DNA of 64,000 nt, from sequence record PQ306573.1; one strand, given 5' to 3'. A program made the position numbers and the translations under genes. Below are positions 34,581 through 52,273 of this stretch, piece after piece. The notes beneath the pieces were generated by a model. The model worked only from the letters and a program-made list of their open reading frames with translations, was not told the DNA's origin and ran no database searches. The stretch's first letter is position 1. Each line of letters begins with the position of its first letter. This stretch comes from Escherichia phage vB_EcoM_PTE-Eco05.

Positions 34581-37292
34581 ATGAAAGAATTTTACTTAAC
34601 GGTTGAACAGATTGGTGATTCAATTTTTGAACGTTACATCGATTCTAATGGCCGTGAACGTACTCGTGAAGTAGAATATAAACCATCACTGTTTGCTCAT
34701 TGTCCAGAAAGTCAGGCTACGAAATATTTCGATATCTACGGTAAGCCGTGTACTCGTAAGTTGTTCGCTAATATGCGTGCTGCCTCCCAATGGATTAAAC
34801 GCATGGAAGATATCGGACTTGAAGCACTTGGCATGGACGATTTCAAATTGGCGTATTTGACTGACACTTATAACTATGAAATCAAATACGACCATACAAA
34901 AATTCGTGTGGCTAACTTCGACATCGAAGTAACATCTCCGGACGGGTTCCCTGAGCCGTCACAAGCAAAACATCCGATTGATGCTATCACCCATTATGAC
35001 TCAATTGACGACAGGTTCTACGTATTTGATCTATTGAATTCTCCATATGGTAATGTAGAAGAATGGTCTATTGAAATCGCTGCTAAGCTTCAAGAACAAG
35101 GCGGTGATGAAGTTCCATCCGAAATTATCGATAAAATCATTTATATGCCGTTCGATAACGAAAAAGAATTGTTGATGGAATATCTCAACTTCTGGCAACA
35201 GAAAACTCCTGTCATTTTGACTGGATGGAACGTTGAGTCATTTGATATTCCATATGTGTATAACCGAATCAAGAATATTTTTGGCGAATCTACTGCGAAA
35301 CGTTTATCACCACATCGTAAAACTCGTGTTAAAGTTATCGAAAACATGTATGGTTCTCGTGAAATCATTACATTGTTCGGTATCTCTGTTCTTGATTACA
35401 TTGACCTTTACAAAAAATTCTCTTTTACCAATCAACCGTCGTATTCTCTGGATTACATTTCAGAATTTGAATTGAACGTCGGTAAACTGAAATACGACGG
35501 CCCTATTTCTAAGCTTCGTGAAAGCAATCACCAACGATATATTTCTTATAACATTATCGACGTGTATCGTGTATTGCAAATTGATGCTAAGCGTCAGTTC
35601 ATCAACTTGAGTTTGGACATGGGTTATTATGCTAAGATACAGATTCAATCTGTGTTTAGCCCAATTAAAACATGGGATGCTATTATCTTTAATAGCCTTA
35701 AAGAGCAGAACAAGGTGATTCCACAAGGTCGTTCTCACCCGGTTCAACCTTATCCTGGCGCTTTTGTTAAGGAACCTATTCCAAATCGATACAAATATGT
35801 AATGAGTTTCGACCTTACATCTCTGTATCCAAGTATTATTCGCCAAGTGAATATTAGCCCGGAAACAATAGCAGGAACGTTTAAAGTAGCTCCACTGCAT
35901 GATTATATTAACGCAATCGCTGAACGTCCTTCAGATGTGTACAGTTGTTCTCCTAACGGCATGATGTATTATAAAGACCGTGATGGTGTAGTTCCAACTG
36001 AAATCACTAAGGTCTTTAATCAACGTAAAGAACATAAAGGTTACATGCTTGCAGCTCAACGTAATGGTGAAATAATTAAAGAGGCCTTACATAATCCTAA
36101 TCTTTCTGTTGACGAACCATTAGATGTTGATTATCGTTTCGACTTCAGTGATGAGATTAAAGAAAAGATTAAAAAGTTGTCTGCTAAATCTCTTAATGAA
36201 ATGTTGTTTAGAGCTCAACGTACTGAAGTTGCAGGTATGACTGCACAGATTAACCGTAAATTGCTCATCAACTCACTTTATGGTGCACTCGGCAACGTTT
36301 GGTTCCGTTATTACGATTTGCGTAATGCTACTGCAATCACAACATTTGGTCAAATGGCTTTACAGTGGATTGAACGTAAAGTTAATGAATATCTGAATGA
36401 AGTTTGTGGTACAGAAGGTGAAGCTTTCGTTCTTTATGGTGATACAGACTCTATTTACGTATCTGCTGATAAAATTATCGATAAGGTTGGTGAATCTAAA
36501 TTCCGTGATACCAACCATTGGGTAGACTTCTTAGATAAGTTTGCACGTGAACGTATGGAACCAGCTATTGATAGAGGTTTCCGTGAAATGTGTGAATACA
36601 TGAACAATAAACAACACTTAATGTTCATGGACCGAGAAGCTATCGCTGGGCCTCCGCTTGGTTCTAAAGGTATTGGCGGATTTTGGACTGGTAAGAAACG
36701 TTATGCATTAAACGTGTGGGATATGGAAGGTACTCGTTACGCTGAGCCTAAACTCAAAATCATGGGTCTAGAGACTCAGAAATCTTCGACTCCTAAAGCA
36801 GTACAGAAAGCTCTTAAAGAATGTATTCGTCGTATGCTTCAAGAAGGTGAAGAATCATTACAAGAATATTTTAAAGAGTTTGAAAAAGAATTCCGTCAAT
36901 TGAATTATATTAGCATCGCGTCGGTATCTTCTGCGAATAACATTGCTAAATACGACGTAGGTGGATTCCCGGGTCCTAAATGCCCGTTCCATATTCGTGG
37001 AATTCTGACGTATAACCGAGCTATCAAAGGTAATATTGATGCACCACAAGTTGTAGAAGGTGAAAAAGTATATGTTCTGCCTTTACGTGAAGGAAACCCA
37101 TTCGGTGATAAATGTATCGCATGGCCTTCTGGTACTGAAATCACAGATTTAATTAAAGACGATGTACTTCATTGGATGGACTACACTGTTCTCCTTGAGA
37201 AGACATTTATTAAACCGCTTGAAGGATTCACATCAGCAGCTAAACTCGATTACGAGAAGAAAGCATCTCTGTTCGATATGTTTGATTTTTGA
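34581..37292 (+). CDS. 43: DNA polymerase (family B)
   Basis: 903 aa; exonuclease and polymerase motifs (FDIE, YGDTDS, KILINSLYG) close to T4 gp43. Confidence 0.97.
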   Translation: MKEFYLTVEQIGDSIFERYIDSNGRERTREVEYKPSLFAHCPESQATKYFDIYGKPCTRKLFANMRAASQWIKRMEDIGLEALGMDDFKLAYLTDTYNYEIKYDHTKIRVANFDIEVTSPDGFPEPSQAKHPIDAITHYDSIDDRFYVFDLLNSPYGNVEEWSIEIAAKLQEQGGDEVPSEIIDKIIYMPFDNEKELLMEYLNFWQQKTPVILTGWNVESFDIPYVYNRIKNIFGESTAKRLSPHRKTRVKVIENMYGSREIITLFGISVLDYIDLYKKFSFTNQPSYSLDYISEFELNVGKLKYDGPISKLRESNHQRYISYNIIDVYRVLQIDAKRQFINLSLDMGYYAKIQIQSVFSPIKTWDAIIFNSLKEQNKVIPQGRSHPVQPYPGAFVKEPIPNRYKYVMSFDLTSLYPSIIRQVNISPETIAGTFKVAPLHDYINAIAERPSDVYSCSPNGMMYYKDRDGVVPTEITKVFNQRKEHKGYMLAAQRNGEIIKEALHNPNLSVDEPLDVDYRFDFSDEIKEKIKKLSAKSLNEMLFRAQRTEVAGMTAQINRKLLINSLYGALGNVWFRYYDLRNATAITTFGQMALQWIERKVNEYLNEVCGTEGEAFVLYGDTDSIYVSADKIIDKVGESKFRDTNHWVDFLDKFARERMEPAIDRGFREMCEYMNNKQHLMFMDREAIAGPPLGSKGIGGFWTGKKRYALNVWDMEGTRYAEPKLKIMGLETQKSSTPKAVQKALKECIRRMLQEGEESLQEYFKEFEKEFRQLNYISIASVSSANNIAKYDVGGFPGPKCPFHIRGILTYNRAIKGNIDAPQVVEGEKVYVLPLREGNPFGDKCIAWPSGTEITDLIKDDVLHWMDYTVLLEKTFIKPLEGFTSAAKLDYEKKASLFDMFDF

Positions 37293-37332
37293 TATAATGC
37301 CAAGGACGGCCAACTAATTAAATGAGAGAAAT

Positions 37333-37968
37333 ATGAAAACTACACCAATCACTATCGCTATTGACGCAATCGTAAAACAAGCTTCATCTCTTGCCACTAT
37401 GGCTAAAGTAATTAGTCAAAACCCTGCTCGGTATAATGCTATTCTTGAAACTCTTCGTCGCCCTGGACTGAGTAATTATGAAAGTCGTGTAATTATTACA
37501 GGTGTTGGTAAGAACGCTAATATCGCAACTAAAGCTTCCGAGACTTTTGCTTCACTAGGTATTCCTAGCATGTATTTGAACACTGGGCATTATTCTCATG
37601 GTGACGCAGGATTTATTGCACCTAATGATGTATTAGTTCACATCAGCCGTTCTGGTAAGACTGAAGAAATGATAGGTGTTGCTAAACATCTTCGTATGAT
37701 TCGTCCTCAGGTTAAACAGATTCTGTTACATTGTAACCCTGACATTCCACAAGAATACGAAGCTCTTTTTGATTATACGTTCTGTACTGGTATCGCGGTA
37801 GAAGTTGACGAGAACTCTTTAGCTCCGACAATGTCTACTACATTGTTGTTAGCGCTTATCGATACGTTCGCTATCAACCTTTCGTCTGAACGTGGATTTA
37901 CCTCTAATGATTTCCTTAAGTTCCATCCAGGCGGTGCACTAGGTGCCATGTTACGAGGCGAACAATGA
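37333..37968 (+). CDS. SIS-domain sugar-phosphate isomerase, KdsD/GutQ-like arabinose-5-phosphate isomerase
   Basis: ITGVGKNANIATKASETFASLGIPS...HGDAGFIAPNDVLVHISRSGKTEE...LAPTMSTTLLLALID...HPGGALG matches API SIS motifs; no CBS domains. Confidence 0.8.
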   Translation: MKTTPITIAIDAIVKQASSLATMAKVISQNPARYNAILETLRRPGLSNYESRVIITGVGKNANIATKASETFASLGIPSMYLNTGHYSHGDAGFIAPNDVLVHISRSGKTEEMIGVAKHLRMIRPQVKQILLHCNPDIPQEYEALFDYTFCTGIAVEVDENSLAPTMSTTLLLALIDTFAINLSSERGFTSNDFLKFHPGGALGAMLRGEQ

Positions 37969-38107
37969 AAGCAATATCAATAGGACTTTTACTATTGATG
38001 CTTGTCATGACTATCTACTGGAGCTTAACGGCTCCAGTAATGATTCCAACACTTGTAATTGGATGGATTATGATTGGACTACAAGCAAAGTATGAATGCT
38101 TTAACTA
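37965..38107 (+). CDS. small hydrophobic membrane peptide (47 aa)
   Basis: ATGA overlap with upstream stop; MKAISIGLLLLMLVMTIYW... Confidence 0.35.
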
Positions 38108-38149
38108 GAATAGTGTACAATACTCCTACTTACCAATGAGGACTTCAAC

Positions 38150-39835
38150 ATGAAAAAAGCTGTTATTCTTGGTGCTGGACTGGCAACTCGTTTGTATCCA
38201 ATAACGCATCATATTCCTAAGGTGCTTGTTAACTATAAACAAGACACTATTCTGAGCAATTTGTATACAATTTATTCTGACCTTGGCGCAGATGAAATTA
38301 TTGTAGTAGTTCATTCAAAATTTGCTGAAACTGTTCGAGCTTATTGTGAGCAAGAAGGGTTCAATGTGACTATTCGTACAGTTGATGAAGCGTATGGTTC
38401 TGCTTATGCTCTTGCTAAATTACACAAAGATTTAGACGGCCATAATGTAATTGTTAACTGGTGTGATATTATTCCCGATTTTGGTTCATGGTCTTGGAAT
38501 GTTAACGCAATCTATGTTAAGGGTGATGAATGTCGGTATAATTTCGATGGTGAAAATATCACTAATGTAGGTGAAACAGGCGGTAATGTTGTAGGAATTT
38601 ATCAGTTCAAAGACTGGGAATTCTATATGGGTTCTACCGATGAGGAAATTCATGAATACTGCAAAGGACGTGATTTCGTAGAATTCCTTTACGGCAGCAC
38701 ATTCAATAAATCAGAGCTTATGAATCTAATTGATTTAGGTGATATGCCTAAACTTGAAAAGGCCCATGAAGTTCGTGAACTGAACCGTAGTTTTAATGCA
38801 GTTGAAATTGGCGAAGAAACTGTAACTAAATTCGCATTAACCGAACAGGGTCGAGCTCTTCAGAAAGATGAGATTTCGTGGTATTTGAAAGTGAAATCAG
38901 ATTCAGTTCCTCAGTTAGTTTCTGTTAATGAAAATAACTTTGAAATGGAACGCATTAAAGGTAAGCCGGCATTTGAATATATTAAATCAAAATCAAGTCT
39001 TGCTCGTCCACAAATTATTGATGCAATTTTAGATGCACTGAAATTCAGCACAGACACTTATTTTGTAAGTCCTGAAACTGTTCGTCGTGATTTCACTAAA
39101 GAATTCTATACGAAAGTTATTGATCGTTGTGAAAGCATTCAACCATTGATTGATTCATTTGGTAAAATCACACATGTGAACTACACTAAGATTGGACGTC
39201 TGAAGCCAATGCTGAAACAAGCTTTAGAACACCTTATTCGTTATCATAACCGTTCTCAGGGACAGTACTCTGTTATTCATGGTGACCCGAACTTCAGTAA
39301 TACTATGATTACTGATAACGGCGAAGTCAAGTTTATCGACCCTCGTGGATATTTTGGCGAAACCAAGATTTACGGGCCAAAATTGTATGATGAAGCTAAA
39401 GTGCTTTACGCTGTTTCAGGTTATGATGAATTCAATGCTAATCCGACCTGGGGACAGTTTACTATTGATGAAACAACTTGTAATGTGACTATTAACATCA
39501 ATCCATTAGTTTACAAATATGGAAAGATGAGTTCGTTTAACGAGTATCATCATTTGGCAGTGGCAATTATCTGGATTGCATTAGGTGGTTATTTCAAGAA
39601 TAATCCACTTAAAGCGGTAGCCGCATATTATAAAGGTATGGAACTTCTGACTAAGCAATTACGTAATATGGGCCGTGTACTTCAAGACGGCTCTATTAGT
39701 TATGACGTAGCAGAACCTGTAACGGCTACTCTGATTACAAAAAATCCTGGTAAATGGGTACTAACTGATAAAGAAACTGGTGTTTCCTATCGTCCAATCG
39801 GTGGCGATATCACTCATCAATGGGAACGAATCTAA
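38150..39835 (+). CDS. bifunctional NDP-sugar pyrophosphorylase / sugar kinase fusion
   Basis: N-terminal AVILGAGLATRLYPITHHIPKVLV nucleotidyltransferase motif; C-terminal IHGDPNFSNTMI and FIDPRGYFG resemble APH/choline-kinase-fold motifs. Confidence 0.75.
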   Translation: MKKAVILGAGLATRLYPITHHIPKVLVNYKQDTILSNLYTIYSDLGADEIIVVVHSKFAETVRAYCEQEGFNVTIRTVDEAYGSAYALAKLHKDLDGHNVIVNWCDIIPDFGSWSWNVNAIYVKGDECRYNFDGENITNVGETGGNVVGIYQFKDWEFYMGSTDEEIHEYCKGRDFVEFLYGSTFNKSELMNLIDLGDMPKLEKAHEVRELNRSFNAVEIGEETVTKFALTEQGRALQKDEISWYLKVKSDSVPQLVSVNENNFEMERIKGKPAFEYIKSKSSLARPQIIDAILDALKFSTDTYFVSPETVRRDFTKEFYTKVIDRCESIQPLIDSFGKITHVNYTKIGRLKPMLKQALEHLIRYHNRSQGQYSVIHGDPNFSNTMITDNGEVKFIDPRGYFGETKIYGPKLYDEAKVLYAVSGYDEFNANPTWGQFTIDETTCNVTININPLVYKYGKMSSFNEYHHLAVAIIWIALGGYFKNNPLKAVAAYYKGMELLTKQLRNMGRVLQDGSISYDVAEPVTATLITKNPGKWVLTDKETGVSYRPIGGDITHQWERI

Positions 39836-40221
39836 TGCACCGTGTAGAAAACATGCTTAATCTTTGTTTTGATGTCGATGATTGTATAACAGAGTGGAAT
39901 AACAATCGTGATTACGTGAACTTCAAACCAGACGTCGAAATGGTGTCTGCCATTAATGCTCTGTATGATGCAGGGCATACCATAACGCTTTACACTGCTC
40001 GCGGTATGAAGTCAGTAGGTCCTGGTCGTATAGCAATTGACATTCTCCCAAGTCTGATTCAGAACTTGGCAAACATTGGCTTGAAGTACCATAATTTGCT
40101 AACACATAAACCAGTATATGATTGGATTATCGACGACAAAGCTATGCGTCCTGACGAATTCAAAGCTCTTATGAATAAAGGCGAATTCGAAACATTTAAA
40201 TCGTATAAACCGAATCTATAA
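39835..40221 (+). CDS. HAD-superfamily phosphatase-like protein
   Basis: FDVDDCIT near N-terminus (HAD motif I-like), later TARG and WIIDD. Confidence 0.55.
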   Translation: MHRVENMLNLCFDVDDCITEWNNNRDYVNFKPDVEMVSAINALYDAGHTITLYTARGMKSVGPGRIAIDILPSLIQNLANIGLKYHNLLTHKPVYDWIIDDKAMRPDEFKALMNKGEFETFKSYKPNL

Positions 40222-40269
40222 TAATTTAAGTAAGACCTGCAAAAAAACCATCGCATCAATTAACGCGAG

Positions 40270-41439
40270 ATGCAAAAAATGAATACTTTTAAAATCGGAA
40301 CGAATTTTGATTTAGCTCTTCTTGATAAAATCGTAGAGCTCAATAAAACTTATCCTAATAGCTTGATAAATGAAGTATACGGCTCTACAAGAGAAATGGC
40401 TTTTGTAGCAGCCAGACCTGATTTTAGGCTTCCTGACGTTGACAAAAAGATGTTAGAAGATTACGTTAAACGTTGTAACGAATTAGGTATTTGCTTTAAC
40501 TATACACTCAACACGATAAATCCTGGTTCAAAAAGAGAACTAGTTGAGTGGAAGAAGAAAGCTATTCAGGATTATGTTCAGTATCTTTGGTCAATAGGCG
40601 TATGGCGTATTACTATCGCTAACCCTGTTGTTATGGAAATTGTTCGTGAAGTCAATAAAGACATTGAGATTGAAGTTTCAACAATTCTACATGTCGATGC
40701 TGTAACTCAAATCAAATACTTGCATGACCAGTATAATATCAAAAAGGTCTGCTGTGGAATTCATAAGAACCGTTCAGTTTCTTTCCTGAAGCGTGCAGCA
40801 GAGTTTTGCAATAAGAACAATATAATATTTGAAGTTCTTGTAAATGAGTTCTGTTCTAATGCTGGTAAAGGGTATACAACACATTGTAGCTATCGTGACT
40901 CTTGCTATATTTTCCATAGTACTGATGTTACAGCTGATGATGCTAAATCCTTAAACGGATATCCTATGCAGCACTGTATTAAAGCTCGTGATACAGACCC
41001 ATTTAACTGGTTGAGAACTCGTTTTGTTCGTCCTCAAGATTTGAAACTTTATAATGATATTGGTATCACTCAATTCAAAGTTTCAGGACGTACAGGTAGC
41101 ACAGACTACATTTTGAAAGTTCTTGAAGCATACGCTTCTGAAAAGTTTGAAGGTAATTTGTTAGAACTGTGGAAGCCTTTAGAGACTATTTTCACTCTTG
41201 AAAACGAAACTGAGTTTTCACATACAGTAAATATTGAAACCTCTTTGTTAGATGGCTTTTTAGAAAAAAGGTGGTTCAGACATCCAGATTTCGATTGTGC
41301 TAATGAAATCTGCGGGACGACGTGTACATATTGTGAAAGATATTATAAACGTCAATTATCTAAAAACGGGTTAGCAGAAAACTCTATATCTATTATTGAT
41401 ATAACTAACTCTGATGACGCTTTGAGGTACCCGGAATGA
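40270..41439 (+). CDS. Cys-rich hypothetical protein of the sugar/modification cluster
   Basis: 389 aa; NEFCSNAGKGYTTHCSYRDSCY and C-terminal CANEICGTTCTYCERYY. Confidence 0.55.
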   Translation: MQKMNTFKIGTNFDLALLDKIVELNKTYPNSLINEVYGSTREMAFVAARPDFRLPDVDKKMLEDYVKRCNELGICFNYTLNTINPGSKRELVEWKKKAIQDYVQYLWSIGVWRITIANPVVMEIVREVNKDIEIEVSTILHVDAVTQIKYLHDQYNIKKVCCGIHKNRSVSFLKRAAEFCNKNNIIFEVLVNEFCSNAGKGYTTHCSYRDSCYIFHSTDVTADDAKSLNGYPMQHCIKARDTDPFNWLRTRFVRPQDLKLYNDIGITQFKVSGRTGSTDYILKVLEAYASEKFEGNLLELWKPLETIFTLENETEFSHTVNIETSLLDGFLEKRWFRHPDFDCANEICGTTCTYCERYYKRQLSKNGLAENSISIIDITNSDDALRYPE

Positions 41440-41675
41440 TTTCTAGAAAAACTTTTAACCACCAACTTAATGAAGAGATTTTGACTATGAAACTGAACAC
41501 TAACGAACAAATTCTTAAAAGGGCCCTGATGGGCCTGTTTGAAACTAAAGCGGCTAAAGTGATTAAAGAACCTGTTCAATTGGAATACTACGCTGATGCA
41601 TTTCTTCATAGTGTTCTTGGAAGTATCGGTGCTGAAGCTTTACGTTATATCAACATTGTCAAGAAATTCAAATAA
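41436..41675 (+). CDS. hypothetical protein
   Basis: 79-aa ORF. Confidence 0.45.
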   Translation: MISRKTFNHQLNEEILTMKLNTNEQILKRALMGLFETKAAKVIKEPVQLEYYADAFLHSVLGSIGAEALRYINIVKKFK

Positions 41676-41717
41676 GCTTTACGAATTGAGTATATAATAA
41701 ATTGTATTGAGGTAAAC

Positions 41718-42434
41718 ATGGGAAAACATAACACAATGAAATATATCAAAGCCGCAGATTTTCAAGCCGCATTTAAAGCAGTCAATCGTGAAATTTTAGA
41801 AAACCCGGAATTCGTAACTGATTCTCGTATTGGACGTTGTAATGAAATTGGGTCTATGACAGTAGTTGTTGACACTCCATCATCATTCAAAATGACCGAC
41901 CCACGTATTAACCGCATCTCTTATGAATATGCCGAAGACTTCTGGAAGTTTATGATTTCTGGTGGTACCAACGCAGAAGAAGCGTTTAAGGCATATCCTA
42001 ATGTCGCTAAATTTATTTCTAAACCAAAATCAGATGTTTTGCCGGCGAACTTCAACACTTTCTATGGTCCTCGCATTGCGGCCCAATTACCAGCTCTTCT
42101 AAAAGAACTTAAAGAGAAGCCTAACTCTCGAAGAGTTGTGTTCCAAATTCTAGAAAGTTCTGATCAGGCTTTGCTTGATTCAGACGAAACGCTTGAATAT
42201 CCATGTACTGACTCAGTGACTTATTATATCCGTGATGGTAAGCTTTATACCCACTGTCATATGCGTTCTCAGAACTGCGCTGTTGTTATGCAGTTGGATT
42301 TTTATCTCCAAGGAAAATTACTTCATTATATCGCTAACGAATGCGGTGTAGAAGTTGGTGATTATACTCATACCATGGTAAGTGCCCATGTGTTTGAACG
42401 TGATTTTGATTATGTTAAAGGATTCCTTGACTAA
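41718..42434 (+). CDS. thymidylate-synthase-fold pyrimidine hydroxymethylase (divergent dCMP hydroxymethylase-like)
   Basis: NSRRVVFQIL and YPCTDSVTYYIRDGKL...MRSQNCAVVMQLDFY align with TS/CH core motifs incl. catalytic Cys; same position as T4 gene 42. Confidence 0.65.
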   Translation: MGKHNTMKYIKAADFQAAFKAVNREILENPEFVTDSRIGRCNEIGSMTVVVDTPSSFKMTDPRINRISYEYAEDFWKFMISGGTNAEEAFKAYPNVAKFISKPKSDVLPANFNTFYGPRIAAQLPALLKELKEKPNSRRVVFQILESSDQALLDSDETLEYPCTDSVTYYIRDGKLYTHCHMRSQNCAVVMQLDFYLQGKLLHYIANECGVEVGDYTHTMVSAHVFERDFDYVKGFLD

Positions 42435-43333
42435 TGGCTATTTTCCGCGTACCAATCTTGAGTATGCGGTCTTATGAAACTGGACAGTATGCTATCCTTA
42501 AGGATGGCAACTTCCAACTTCATTTGCACCGTGCTAATCCGGGTGATGTGATTACATATCCACGTAATGCATCTGATATTAAAGAATGCGAACGTCTTTT
42601 TCCAGAATTTAAGTTTGTTCCATTATGGTATAAAGATAACGCGTATAACACTCGTAAATATTTCTGGTCTGAAAATGAATTTGTGGTTGATTCATTAATT
42701 GCTTATTATGATTGTGATTTTCTAATCACAGATATCACTGGATATGACGGCGCTTTTGATGTGGAATTCAATTTCAATATCACTGCAGACCCTAATAAAC
42801 CACGTTTTTATATTGACGAATTCTTAAAAACTGATATGTTGTCGGTTAATCGTTCACTTCAAACTACTGTGTTGAATGAACGTCAAAAAGAAGTGCTGGT
42901 TAACGCAGGTGCAGATGGTAATAAGATTATCGTAACGCAGAAAGTTATACGTCCTTCCATCATGCAGCGTCTTGTAGGTGATTTGGCTCCTATTTATCTA
43001 GATGGTATTTTTCATCCATTTCGAATTAGTGACCCGTGCTATCGTTTTGAACAAGTGGTTGAATGTGCAATTCAATTAGGCCAACCGCTTTATATAACCG
43101 ATCCAAATAATAGCTTCGACAGAAATAAGTATCCTGAAGAAGCGCTGATTCGAATTTTTAAACCAACTAAAACAGAGTACTATCAAATTCTTAAAGGGCG
43201 TCCTAAAATTCAATATTTCGAAAATCCTGAAGAAGTATTCCATCCAGGTCTTGGTGAGTTCATCTACTTTAATGCTTTAATTTCTTCGCCGTATAATATA
43301 CCTAAATATGAAGATGTCGTAATCGAGGAATAA
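42434..43333 (+). CDS. hypothetical protein (candidate DNA sugar transferase by context only)
   Basis: 299-aa ORF between hydroxymethylase and kinase; no motif recognised. Confidence 0.5.
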   Translation: MAIFRVPILSMRSYETGQYAILKDGNFQLHLHRANPGDVITYPRNASDIKECERLFPEFKFVPLWYKDNAYNTRKYFWSENEFVVDSLIAYYDCDFLITDITGYDGAFDVEFNFNITADPNKPRFYIDEFLKTDMLSVNRSLQTTVLNERQKEVLVNAGADGNKIIVTQKVIRPSIMQRLVGDLAPIYLDGIFHPFRISDPCYRFEQVVECAIQLGQPLYITDPNNSFDRNKYPEEALIRIFKPTKTEYYQILKGRPKIQYFENPEEVFHPGLGEFIYFNALISSPYNIPKYEDVVIEE

Positions 43334-43334
43334 A

Positions 43335-43883
43335 ATGGCTAAAATTATTTTAGTAGATGGCCCAGATAATGCTGGTAAAACAACTTTCATTAATGACATA
43401 ATGGAAATTAGTGAAAGATATGTAAAGATTGATTTCCCTAAACGAACAGTTGATGGGCGTTTCGATGTTAAGTCTCGAAATGAAGTTGGCTGCTTCGAAA
43501 CGATGTTGAATTATTTAGACCCTACTAAGATTTATCTGTTAGACCGTGGATATATTAGTAACTGGGTTTATGGACGTATTCGACAAGATGCGGACTCGGT
43601 TCTTGACGTTTATGAACAGGATTATGTTCGTCTTTGCCAAAACCATGATGTGTTCACAATTATTTTAACACGTAACGAAATGACTGAAAGTTTTGAAGAC
43701 GACCTTATTACTTTGTCCTCATTCGGTTTTAATACAGTCATTTCACATTTTGAAGAGTTTGCAATTCATAACAAAATCCAAACGTATCAATTACTTAATC
43801 ATGATGGTGCTAACAAAGTTATAGGATTTAATGCAAGCGAACGTAATTATTTGATTACAGAAATTATCAAATGGGCTCGTTAA
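43335..43883 (+). CDS. P-loop nucleoside-monophosphate kinase-like protein
   Basis: ILVDGPDNAGKTT Walker A and LLDRGYIS (thymidylate-kinase DR-like). Confidence 0.6.
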   Translation: MAKIILVDGPDNAGKTTFINDIMEISERYVKIDFPKRTVDGRFDVKSRNEVGCFETMLNYLDPTKIYLLDRGYISNWVYGRIRQDADSVLDVYEQDYVRLCQNHDVFTIILTRNEMTESFEDDLITLSSFGFNTVISHFEEFAIHNKIQTYQLLNHDGANKVIGFNASERNYLITEIIKWAR

Positions 43884-43981
43884 GAGCCATTTAAAGTTTT
43901 AAATGCTGTATAACCCTTAGTATATAATCATCTTATCTTTTAAACATGAGTAAAATATAATGATGCCTATGGAAAAATACA

Positions 43982-45154
43982 ATGTCTGATTTAAAATCTC
44001 GTCTGATTAAAGCTTCTACTTCTAAAATGACTGCAGACTTGACTAAGTCTAAGCTGTTTAATAATCGTGATGAAGTCCCTACTCGTATTCCGATGTTGAA
44101 TATTGCACTAGGTGGTGCACTGAATGCCGGGTTGCAATCAGGCTTAACTATTTTTGCTGCTCCTTCTAAACACTTTAAAACATTGTTTGGGCTGACCATG
44201 GTTGCAGCATATATGAAGAAATATAAAGATGCAATCTGTTTGTTTTATGACTCAGAATTCGGTGCTTCAGAATCTTATTTTCGTTCAATGGGTGTTGATT
44301 TAGACCGTGTAGTTCATACTCCGATTCAATCTGTCGAACAACTTAAAGTTGATATGACTAATCAGCTTGACGCGATTGAACGCGGTGATAAAGTTATTAT
44401 CTTTATCGATTCAATCGGTAATACTGCATCTAAGAAAGAAACCGAAGATGCGTTGAACGAGAAAGTTGTAGGTGATATGTCTCGTGCTAAGGCACTTAAA
44501 TCTCTGTTCCGCATTGTGACTCCTTATCTGACTATTAAAGATATTCCATGTGTTGCAATCAACCATACAGCAATGGAAATCGGCGGATTGTATCCTAAAG
44601 AGATTATGGGCGGTGGTACCGGTATTCTTTATTCTGCCAACACGGTATTTTTTATCTCTAAACGTCAGGTTAAAGAAGGTACAGAATTGACCGGTTATGA
44701 CTTCACGTTGAAAGCAGAAAAATCTCGTACAGTTAAAGAGAAATCTACTTTCCCAATCACGGTTAATTTTGATGGCGGTATTGACCCATTCAGTGGCTTG
44801 TTAGAAATGGCAACTGAAATTGGATTTGTTGTTAAGCCTAAAGCCGGTTGGTATGCTCGCGAATTCCTTGACGAAGAAACAGGTGAAATGATTCGTGAAG
44901 AAAAATCATGGCGTGCTAAAGCTACTGATTGTGTAGAATTCTGGGGACCTTTGTTTAAACACAAACCTTTCCGAGATGCAATTGAAACTAAATATAAACT
45001 AGGTGCTATCTCTTCTATTAAAGAAGTTGATGACGCTGTTAACGACCTTATTAATTGCAAAGCAACAACTAAAGTTCCGGTTAAAACTTCTGATGCTCCG
45101 TCTGCAGCAGATATAGAAAACGACCTTGACGAAATGGAAGATTTCGATGAATAA
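43982..45154 (+). CDS. uvsX: RecA-like recombinase
   Basis: 390 aa close to T4 UvsX (Walker A region, acidic C-terminus). Confidence 0.95.
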   Translation: MSDLKSRLIKASTSKMTADLTKSKLFNNRDEVPTRIPMLNIALGGALNAGLQSGLTIFAAPSKHFKTLFGLTMVAAYMKKYKDAICLFYDSEFGASESYFRSMGVDLDRVVHTPIQSVEQLKVDMTNQLDAIERGDKVIIFIDSIGNTASKKETEDALNEKVVGDMSRAKALKSLFRIVTPYLTIKDIPCVAINHTAMEIGGLYPKEIMGGGTGILYSANTVFFISKRQVKEGTELTGYDFTLKAEKSRTVKEKSTFPITVNFDGGIDPFSGLLEMATEIGFVVKPKAGWYAREFLDEETGEMIREEKSWRAKATDCVEFWGPLFKHKPFRDAIETKYKLGAISSIKEVDDAVNDLINCKATTKVPVKTSDAPSAADIENDLDEMEDFDE

Positions 45155-51751: not shown

Positions 51752-52273
51752 ATGGCGCACTTTAACGAATGTTCACAACTTATTTCTGGTGTTGATAAAG
51801 CAGAAGAAGCTTATTTTAATGCTCTGATTCACGAAGATAAAGACCCACTGCAGGTAATGCTTGATATGCAGAAATCTTTACAGGTTCGTCTGGCAAATGA
51901 CAAGCCTGAACATAACAAACATCCTGATGAATTAGCTACCGCCGGTGATGTTGTTGATTGGCTGCGTAATCAGAAAGATTATATTGATGATGAATTCCGT
52001 GAACTGCTGACTTCACTTGGCGGTATGAGCAATGGTGAAAAAGCTGCCAGCAGTGTATGGAAGCCATGGAAAGCACAACATGCTGAATATCGTAATCGTC
52101 GTATCGATGAACTGTCTCCTGAAGACCAGCTCGAAATTAAATTCGAAATGATTGATATTCTGCACTTCGTTCTGAACATGTTCCAAGGTCTGGGTCTTTC
52201 TGCTGAAGAAATCTTTAAACTGTATTACCTGAAAAACCAACACAACTTTGAACGCCAGGATAATGGTTACTGA
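51752..52273 (+). CDS. 56: dCTP pyrophosphatase (MazG-like)
   Basis: MAHFNEC...LQVMLDMQ...LEIKFEMIDILHFVLNMF close to T4 gp56. Confidence 0.9.
   Translation: MAHFNECSQLISGVDKAEEAYFNALIHEDKDPLQVMLDMQKSLQVRLANDKPEHNKHPDELATAGDVVDWLRNQKDYIDDEFRELLTSLGGMSNGEKAASSVWKPWKAQHAEYRNRRIDELSPEDQLEIKFEMIDILHFVLNMFQGLGLSAEEIFKLYYLKNQHNFERQDNGY

Follow-up and report, generated by a model that had tools for sequence, protein, structure and literature searches.

A thymidylate-synthase-fold protein at the gene 42 place of an RB69-like coliphage is very probably a flavin- and O2-dependent dCMP 5-hydroxylase

Which reaction is catalyzed by the protein that an RB69-like phage encodes at the place where T4 carries gene 42? 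The question is raised by the gene at 41718..42434 (+ strand) of the window, the whole stretch of 64,000 nucleotides of Escherichia phage vB_EcoM_PTE-Eco05 (PQ306573.1) that was analyzed, which megablast assigned to the RB69-like T-even phages of the genus Mosigvirus. The open reading frame runs from ATG to TAA and codes for 238 amino acids, with exactly the bounds given in a preliminary description of this DNA, and direct reading of the sequence locates a Shine-Dalgarno motif, GAGGT (41709..41713, + strand), 4 nt 5' of the ATG at 41718. Its DNA is 99.7% identical to that of Shigella phage JK45, and at least 80% of the frame is covered in 170 of the 171 phage records matched by megablast. Public records label the relatives of this protein as thymidylate synthase, dCMP hydroxymethylase or hypothetical protein. 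The preliminary description had taken it for a hydroxymethylase with a thymidylate synthase (TS)/dCMP-hydroxymethylase core, strongly diverged from T4 gp42, and had seen in this divergence the sign of an altered substrate specificity or of a co-evolution with the adjacent sugar pathway.

The core proposed there was borne out. All the motifs cited are present, namely NSRR at residues 136-139, YPCTDS with the catalytic cysteine at 161-166, MRSQN at 182-186 and MQLDFY at 191-196, and the Pfam family PF00303 matches with 56.9 bits (2.3e-15; gathering cut-off 24.3), over residues 122-235 only. The AlphaFold2 model (pLDDT 88.5) was matched by Foldseek to structures of the TS superfamily, with a TM score of 0.94 and an rmsd of 1.6 Å against 9iqc, a structure of the phage HY126 protein AfhB. 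After the AfhB structures, the next-best structural match was the CMP hydroxymethylase MilA (PDB 5JNH, 5B6D; TMq 0.84-0.85, 23% identity), whose alignment spans almost the whole protein, and then came the ThyA enzymes. A sequence search of the PDB gave the same picture, with near-identical full-length chains in 9iqc/9ir2 and 9iqu and with bacterial ThyA and MilA far behind them. The T4 dCMP hydroxymethylase was absent from the best 60 sequence matches in the PDB and from the best 50 structural matches.

To place the divergence from T4 gp42 on a scale, 14 T4 genes from the 61-45 region were translated and compared by BLASTP with all the ORFs of the window. T4 gp42 matched only ORF 41718..42434, with 24.8% identity and 53 bits, whereas 12 neighbours were 53-86% identical to their T4 counterparts (gp41 86, gp40 82, gp45 79, RegA 79, gp44 78, gp62 74, gp61 74, UvsX 68, Sp 66, Imm 65, gp43 61 and Dmd 53%). 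The excess divergence is therefore confirmed, and the alignment with T4 gp42 gives no ordinary, high-identity orthologue on a par with the neighbouring core genes. For the T4 beta-glucosyltransferase (beta-gt), no counterpart was found by BLASTP among the ORFs of the window. The position claimed for the gene also stands. The order in T4 is uvsX-(segA)-beta-gt-42-imm-43, and that in the window is gp43, isomerase, nucleotidyltransferase/kinase, HAD phosphatase, U32-family protein, a small ORF, ORF 41718..42434, glycosyltransferase, kinase, UvsX, gp40 and gp41; comparing the two puts ORF 41718..42434 at the T4 gene 42 place, beside the glycosyltransferase slot.

The reaction itself can be read from much closer relatives. 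The protein shares 235 of its 238 residues with RB69 gp48 (98.7%) and 233 of 238 with HY126 AfhB (XAN60475.1; 97.9%), and the product of XAN60475.1 is exactly the sequence crystallized in 9iqc and 9ir2. The titles of the PDB entries released on 2025-07-16 are explicit: 'Monooxygenase dependent on riboflavin with dCMP and FAD' for 9iqc and 'phage HY126 dCMP hydroxylase-AfhB with substrate dCMP' for 9iqu. In E. coli, RB69 gp48 together with a phage dNMP kinase led to 5-hydroxy-dC (5hodC) in DNA (Lee et al., NAR 2026, PMC13326640). The same work traced the oxygen of 5hodC to 18O2, found purified gp48 to be yellow with FMN that co-purified and could be released, and distinguished 5hodC by retention time and mass from the 5hmdC obtained in the same assay with T4 gp42. 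It also described an Asn at the position of E. coli ThyA Asp169 as the mark of the hydroxylating branch, with nine further Asn-bearing homologues yielding 5hodC, and showed that in the DNA of RB69 and of Acinetobacter phage DLP3 arabinose is ether-linked straight to the C5 of cytosine (PMC13326640). The flavin-bound HY126 structure and the in vitro reconstitution are credited by that article to He et al. (Nat Chem Biol 2026). The sources differ on the flavin: the RB69 preparation contained FMN, and the title of 9iqc names FAD. For Mosigviruses in general, the cytidines were described as arabinosylated 5-hydroxy-dC, and the attribution, made in 2018, of arabosyl-hydroxymethyl-cytosine to RB69 DNA was declared erroneous (PMC13390438).

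On these grounds, gene 41718..42434 very probably encodes a dCMP 5-hydroxylase (5-hydroxy-dCMP synthase), the counterpart of HY126 AfhB and RB69 gp48; the activity, the flavin binding and the DNA composition that we ascribe to it are those reported for relatives at 98-99% identity. The name hydroxymethylase and the altered substrate specificity put forward in the preliminary description are not supported, since RB69 gp48 and HY126 AfhB turn dCMP into 5-hydroxy-dCMP with flavin and O2; reaction and cofactor have changed, and the nucleotide substrate has stayed the same. The enzyme family itself is already known, having been solved and published in 2025-2026. The value of the present assignment is thus mainly corrective with respect to the labels found in databases, and it concerns a TS-fold enzyme that exchanged folate for flavin as cofactor and installs a hydroxyl group.

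The residues of the active site were followed in an alignment of the protein with E. coli ThyA, T4 gp42, RB69 gp48 and 120 homologues from databases, the most distant of them 53% identical. Four positions carry the signature of the family, each kept in 120 of the 120 homologues: Cys163 (codon 42204-42206), the catalytic cysteine equivalent to ThyA C146; Glu160 (42195-42197), at ThyA L143; Asn186 (42273-42275), at ThyA D169, where both ThyA and T4 gp42 have Asp; and Asp194 (42297-42299), at ThyA N177 and T4 D179, a choice that corresponds to cytosine rather than uracil (all codons on the + strand). The preliminary description had argued that an Asp at the cytosine-specificity position would point to dCMP as substrate, and this holds, the near-identical relatives using dCMP. 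With E. coli ThyA, to which it is 22% identical, the protein further shares the fold and the phosphate clamp (Arg126, Arg127 and Arg166, here arginines 138, 139 and 183) as well as Ser167 and His207 (here Ser184 and His224). It differs by N177D, D169N and L143E, by three changes in the pocket (Trp80 to Ala97, Gly173 to Val190 and Phe176 to Leu193, ThyA numbering to that of the protein) and by the absence from the alignment of the ThyA C-terminal tail of about 45 residues. We take ThyA positions 80, 173 and 176 to line the former folate pocket, and Asp169 and Trp80 to be folate-site residues; T4 gp42 keeps both of the latter, and the protein has lost both.

Compared with HY126 AfhB (PDB 9IQC, 9IR2, 9IQU) and RB69 gp48, the protein has the same C163, E160, N186 and D194 with the same neighbourhood, and differs from them only by 3-5 surface-type substitutions (A17, E31, N85, E87 and V107 in the window protein). 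One of these, Asn85, stands where at least 90% of the family members, RB69 and HY126 included, have Asp. Copies of the protein that are identical or 99.6% identical occur in many viable phage isolates. By its fold, its residues and its relationships the protein therefore falls within the hydroxylase family at every sequence-level test; judged in the same manner, it is neither a ThyA nor a T4-type gp42. Because the Cys/Glu/Asn/Asp signature (ThyA 146/143/169/177) is present in every homologue of the alignment, it provides a practical annotation rule.

Both of the names in use for this gene nevertheless have arguments behind them. A strongly diverged, folate-dependent dCMP hydroxymethylase with 5hm-dCMP as product would have the TS fold, the catalytic Cys, the acid at the L143 position and the Asp at the N177 position that are common to T4 gp42 and MilA, it would sit in the gene 42 slot, and it would agree with the several records that annotate 'dCMP hydroxymethylase' and with the 2018 report of arabinosyl-hmC in RB69 DNA (PMC6024577). 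T4 gp42 resembles the protein down to the Thr that follows the catalytic Cys, and it has in common with the AfhB family the dCMP substrate and with the window gene the map position beside a DNA glycosyltransferase. The chemistries differ: T4 gp42 uses methylene-THF and water to make 5hm-dCMP, and the AfhB family uses flavin and O2 to make 5-hydroxy-dCMP. MilA, a protein of about 320 aa, is likewise unlike the AfhB family in being folate-dependent, in acting on a ribonucleotide and in giving a hydroxymethyl product. What makes the hydroxymethylase very improbable is that the 98.7%-identical RB69 gp48 gives 5hodC and not 5hmdC, the 2018 assignment being stated to be erroneous (PMC13326640, PMC13390438), that Asp169 and Trp80, retained by T4 gp42, have become Asn and Ala, and that the crystal structure contains FAD, not folate, according to the title of 9iqc. 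A true thymidylate synthase converting dUMP to dTMP, the annotation given in most related phage genomes, is supported by the Pfam Thymidylat_synt match above threshold and by the bacterial ThyA enzymes being the best non-self sequence matches in the PDB. We regard it as next to impossible: all the NCBIfam thymidylate-synthase equivalogs stay far under their cut-offs (the best at 68 bits against 174.55), the uracil-selecting Asn177 is an Asp, the residues contacting folate are changed and the C-terminal residues are missing.

Support of another kind for the flavin-dependent hydroxylase comes from gene neighbourhoods. On two distant T4-like metagenomic contigs, an AfhB homologue (53-59% identical) is directly preceded by a gene resembling Flavodoxin_2/FMN reductases (51.5 and 70.6 bits), and after it come homologues of the window's glycosyltransferase and kinase. 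This adjacency constitutes an independent, though indirect, comparative support for the use of flavin by the AfhB family.

From the conserved residues, a reaction can be proposed in which Cys163 would attack C6 of dCMP, as in all the TS-family enzymes, and Asp194 would read the N3/N4 face of the cytosine. The activated C5, a carbanion equivalent, would then take an oxygen atom from O2 by means of reduced flavin, the origin of the oxygen and the bound flavin being known for the orthologues; the oxygen donor would most likely be a flavin hydroperoxide lodged in the remodelled former folate pocket. Elimination of the Cys thiol would free 5-hydroxy-dCMP. Kinases would raise the latter to the triphosphate, a gp56-type dCTPase would clear dCTP, and the gp43 polymerase would put 5-hydroxy-dC into DNA, where the glycosyltransferase encoded downstream would add arabinofuranose from UDP-Araf. 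Three enzymes encoded upstream would supply the UDP-Araf, namely the isomerase, the bifunctional kinase/uridylyltransferase and the HAD phosphatase. The expected end product is a DNA containing arabinosyl-5-hydroxycytosine, resistant to many restriction enzymes. The hydroxyl on the cytosine is the attachment point of the arabinose, and it depends on the modification which of the restriction, CRISPR and type IV systems are able to act on these coliphages, which are therapeutic candidates.

The genes for such a pathway are all around the hydroxylase. The segment 37333-43883 matches RB69 gp45-gp55 gene for gene, and the arabinosylation cluster, complete and syntenic, shows 96.9% nucleotide identity to HY126 over 11 kb; the co-evolution with the adjacent sugar pathway evoked in the preliminary description was in this respect a sound idea. 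All the genes lie on the + strand. The cluster opens with an arabinose-5-phosphate isomerase (37333..37968; RB69 gp55 orthologue), the equivalent gene being so annotated in NRG-P0074, RB69 and HY126. It is followed by a bifunctional protein of 561 aa (38150..39835; RB69 gp52:53/HY126 AfhE orthologue) combining an N-terminal sugar-1-phosphate nucleotidyltransferase (Pfam NTP_transferase, 8.8e-10) with a C-terminal kinase (weak kinase-family matches at residues 308-409), whose relatives make UDP-arabinofuranose (PMC13326640). The HAD-type sugar phosphatase (39820..40221; RB69 gp51/HY126 AfhF orthologue) matches the NCBIfam capsule biosynthesis phosphatase TIGR01689 (4.3e-13), and its relatives convert arabinose-1,5-bisphosphate to arabinose-1-phosphate (PMC13326640).

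Downstream of the hydroxylase, the DNA glycosyltransferase gene (42434..43333) occupies the beta-gt slot, its ATG overlapping the stop codon of the AfhB gene. Its RB69 orthologue, gp46:47, is the putative first arabinosyltransferase acting on DNA 5-hydroxycytosine (PMC13326640); the protein has no Pfam match, and its homologues adjoin AfhB or U32 in distant phages. The P-loop nucleotide kinase-like protein (43335..43883) is the orthologue of RB69 gp45, listed as 'nucleotide kinase' in Table 1 of PMC13326640. Farther away, the ORF 51752..52273 (+ strand) is a probable gp56-type dCTP pyrophosphatase, its location and the label given at the same place in a close relative (NRG-P0074, 'nucleoside triphosphate pyrophosphohydrolase') being the sole grounds for this assignment; its product would probably keep unmodified dCTP out of the phage DNA. 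In a scan of 37200-44100 for promoters and terminators, the sites were no more numerous than in shuffled sequence, and a preprint on transposon mutagenesis of Bas46 contains no gene-level essentiality data on the arabinosylation cluster.

One gene of the cluster calls for separate attention. At 40270..41439 (+ strand) lies the orthologue of RB69 gp50, a U32-family protein (Pfam PF01136, 7.4e-11). Eight of its cysteines, arranged as C195-x10-C206-x5-C212...C236 plus C343-x4-C348-x3-C352-x2-C355, are conserved or nearly so in a subfamily that has no name of its own and counts about 1,200 representatives, and by this pattern they would probably form two Fe-S sites. No NCBIfam name applies to the phage protein. 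RB69 gp50 is listed in PMC13326640 as a 'sugar or heterocycle reductase', with no mention of U32, prephenate or chorismate, and the literature searched gave nothing tying a U32 protein to the arabinosyl-hydroxycytosine pathway, although He et al. 2026 may already cover it. In E. coli, the U32 proteins RlhA, TrhP and UbiU/V are needed for O2-independent, prephenate-dependent hydroxylations, RlhA being required for 5-hydroxycytidine in rRNA, with direct hydroxylase activity not yet demonstrated for these proteins (PMC5727448, PMC6599085, PMC10990095). The phage protein has in common with them the Pfam U32 domain, clusters of conserved cysteines and a linkage to chorismate mutase or prephenate, and it differs in the pattern of the cysteines. 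BLASTP found no significant similarity between the phage protein and RlhA, TrhP, UbiU or UbiV, the multiple alignment was unreliable and a PDB sequence search gave no match; what links it to the E. coli proteins is therefore no more than the shared Pfam family and the gene context.

This context was explored in other phages. By tblastn, the U32 gene is present in 221 phage records, with identities of 80% or more throughout, and every one of these records is from a phage of Enterobacterales or Shewanella. The AfhB family extends over 373 records, including 57 from Acinetobacter and 20 from Rhizobium phages, and the U32 gene is absent from all of these 57 and 20. A rule by which every AfhB phage of facultative anaerobes would have U32 fails, because U32 is missing from the E. 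coli Dhakavirus IME341, where AfhB, glycosyltransferase, kinase and sugar genes are all present. In Klebsiella phage PWKp16, the gene between U32 and AfhB codes for a chorismate mutase (39.5 bits with Pfam CM_2). This mutase is present in 51 phage records that represent about 12 genera, and in many of the rows listed it falls under or beside 'peptidase' annotations. Prephenate is the product of chorismate mutase. The mutase gene came directly after the U32 gene at all five loci inspected, and the order AfhB-GT-kinase-U32-CM of Shewanella phage Thanatos-2 shows that the two are therefore still adjacent after a rearrangement relative to AfhB. U32 was also the more conserved protein in five of five cross-genus comparisons, with 81-86% identity versus 68-83% for AfhB, the margin being slight for Edwardsiella phage PEi26 (83.8% versus 83.2%).

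More distant U32 homologues (50-58% identical) were read in nine contexts of 15-18 kb each, all on DnaE-type phage contigs outside the Straboviridae. Examples of such contigs are SRR33454321_1371, SRR33674992_2970, SRR13394437_29825 and ERR11534892_15272 (logan) and ERZ27257207 k141_7013580 and ERZ28614484 scaffold_1146 (ena). Six of the nine have the order kinase-like protein, window-type glycosyltransferase and U32, one of them with the isomerase and the bifunctional kinase/uridylyltransferase in addition; on the other three, U32 stands beside dCMP deaminase, thymidylate kinase and polymerase. No TS or AfhB homologue was found within the 15-18 kb read around U32 on any of the nine. In these modules U32 therefore holds the place that AfhB has in the Straboviridae, which suggests that it can fill the role of AfhB.

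It is thus conceivable, although we would not wager on it, that U32 constitutes a second, O2-independent and probably prephenate-dependent route to hydroxylated cytosine, allowing hypermodification of the DNA in the anoxic gut. For the hydroxylase this would imply, with the same tentative standing, that it is idle in anoxic hosts and that its U32 neighbour then supplies the 5-hydroxy-cytosine nucleotides, the phage having two redundant routes. The coupling of U32 with chorismate mutase, the kinase-glycosyltransferase-U32 modules that are devoid of a TS homologue in the stretch read and the limitation of the U32 gene to phages of facultative anaerobes all speak in this sense. The E. coli Dhakaviruses and all the Acinetobacter phages manage without U32, however, and U32 could instead be the electron-transfer partner of AfhB, because its place is the one taken by Flavodoxin_2 in other phages. 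If the two-route proposal were true, a DNA-precursor substrate would be added to those of prephenate-dependent anaerobic hydroxylation, and it would explain how an oxygen-requiring modification pathway of gut phages works without oxygen. What may be new in the present analysis is confined to this side lead.

Between the U32 gene and the hydroxylase gene, at 41436..41675 (+ strand), an ORF of 79 aa occupies the slot that the chorismate mutase has in sister genera. It was considered as a diverged form of the mutase of Klebsiella, Serratia and Yersinia phages and rejected, having no Pfam or NCBIfam match and no BLASTP similarity; an HMM derived from five chorismate mutases of phages scored under 1 bit on this ORF and on the three forward frames of 41300-41760. 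The ORF is found in Mosigviruses only, where it is often truncated, and HY126 has at its place an ORF of only 40 aa.

All 13 cysteines of the phage U32 protein (window 40270-41439, plus strand) are kept across six host genera, and eight of them (C195, C206, C212, which is Cys or His, C236 and the C343-x4-C348-x3-C352-x2-C355 cluster) are conserved or nearly so in 121 distant homologues. In the alignment, this pattern differs from the cysteine motif of the E. coli RlhA and TrhP proteins. A Pfam-positive chorismate mutase gene lies directly 3' of the gene for this U32 Fe-S protein in 51 records from phages of about 12 genera (e.g., L003:5620-7022 and the loci L011, from Edwardsiella phage PEi26, to L014). 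The two genes are still adjacent in Shewanella phage Thanatos-2, where the pair is shifted relative to AfhB. The phages bearing U32 infect Enterobacterales and Shewanella only, and no U32 gene was found in the Acinetobacter or Rhizobium phages which carry AfhB. In the window, the corresponding slot is taken by an ORF of 79 amino acids (41436-41675), which has no family assignment and is restricted to Mosigviruses. Because its database variants are 47 to 58 amino acids long and HY126 has an ORF of only 40 at this place, the slot that elsewhere holds chorismate mutase seems to contain a filler here, one that is decaying or evolving fast.

Homologues of the U32 protein are also present in unrelated phage contigs of the DnaE type, where they occur in two types of context. 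In the first, a kinase-like gene and a homologue of the window glycosyltransferase are directly followed by a U32 homologue with 50-58% identity (L017:3903-8083, L018:5465-8098, L019:5531-8086, L021:7441-11083, L022:7375-11098 and L023:2185-4817), and no TS or AfhB homologue was found in these contigs within the 15-18 kb read. L017 additionally carries an arabinose-5-P isomerase gene, an AfhE-like gene and a gene of the DAHP_synth_1 family; L018 carries TAGT and UDP-galactopyranose mutase genes. In the second (L015:6447-8939, L016:6504-8826 and L020:7001-8832; one example is a contig of 466 kb), the U32 homologue is flanked by a dCMP deaminase or a UDG-DnaE polymerase and by a conserved protein of about 250 amino acids with a weak epimerase-like match.

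Turning to the hydroxylase itself, codon 85 of the window AfhB (41970-41972) encodes Asn within the GGT[D]A motif. Both RB69 gp48 and HY126 AfhB have Asp at this position, a residue with at least 90% conservation in the family. This substitution is presumably tolerated, since many phage isolates have proteins identical or 99.6% identical to that of the window. In distant T4-like metagenomic phages (L024:8162-11312 and L025:8475-11253), a Flavodoxin_2/FMN-reductase-like gene lies immediately 5' of the AfhB homologue, and the glycosyltransferase and kinase genes come after the latter. The Flavodoxin_2/FMN-reductase-like gene looks like one for a phage-encoded flavin reductase serving the hydroxylase.

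The bifunctional nucleotidyltransferase/kinase (38150-39835, 561 amino acids) and the glycosyltransferase (42434-43333, 299 amino acids) are each a single intact ORF in the window. In the RB69 reference record they are divided, respectively, as p052/p053 (L004:8095-9781) and p046/p047 (L004:4598-5498), splits which Lee et al. (PMC13326640) ascribed to sequencing errors. Some relatives carry homing endonuclease genes within the modification cluster, as in NRG-P0074 (L001:9403-10164) and in PEi26 (segC, L011:1695-2333); the window has none at these insertion sites. Public records annotate the cluster (41718-42434 and neighbors) inconsistently and in many cases incorrectly: AfhB goes under the names thymidylate synthase, dCMP hydroxymethylase, deoxycytidylate 5-hydroxymethyltransferase or hypothetical protein, the HAD phosphatase appears as "phosphoheptose isomerase", the nucleotidyltransferase/kinase of NRG-P0074 as "dCMP deaminase" and the glycosyltransferase of IME341 as "RNA polymerase binding protein".
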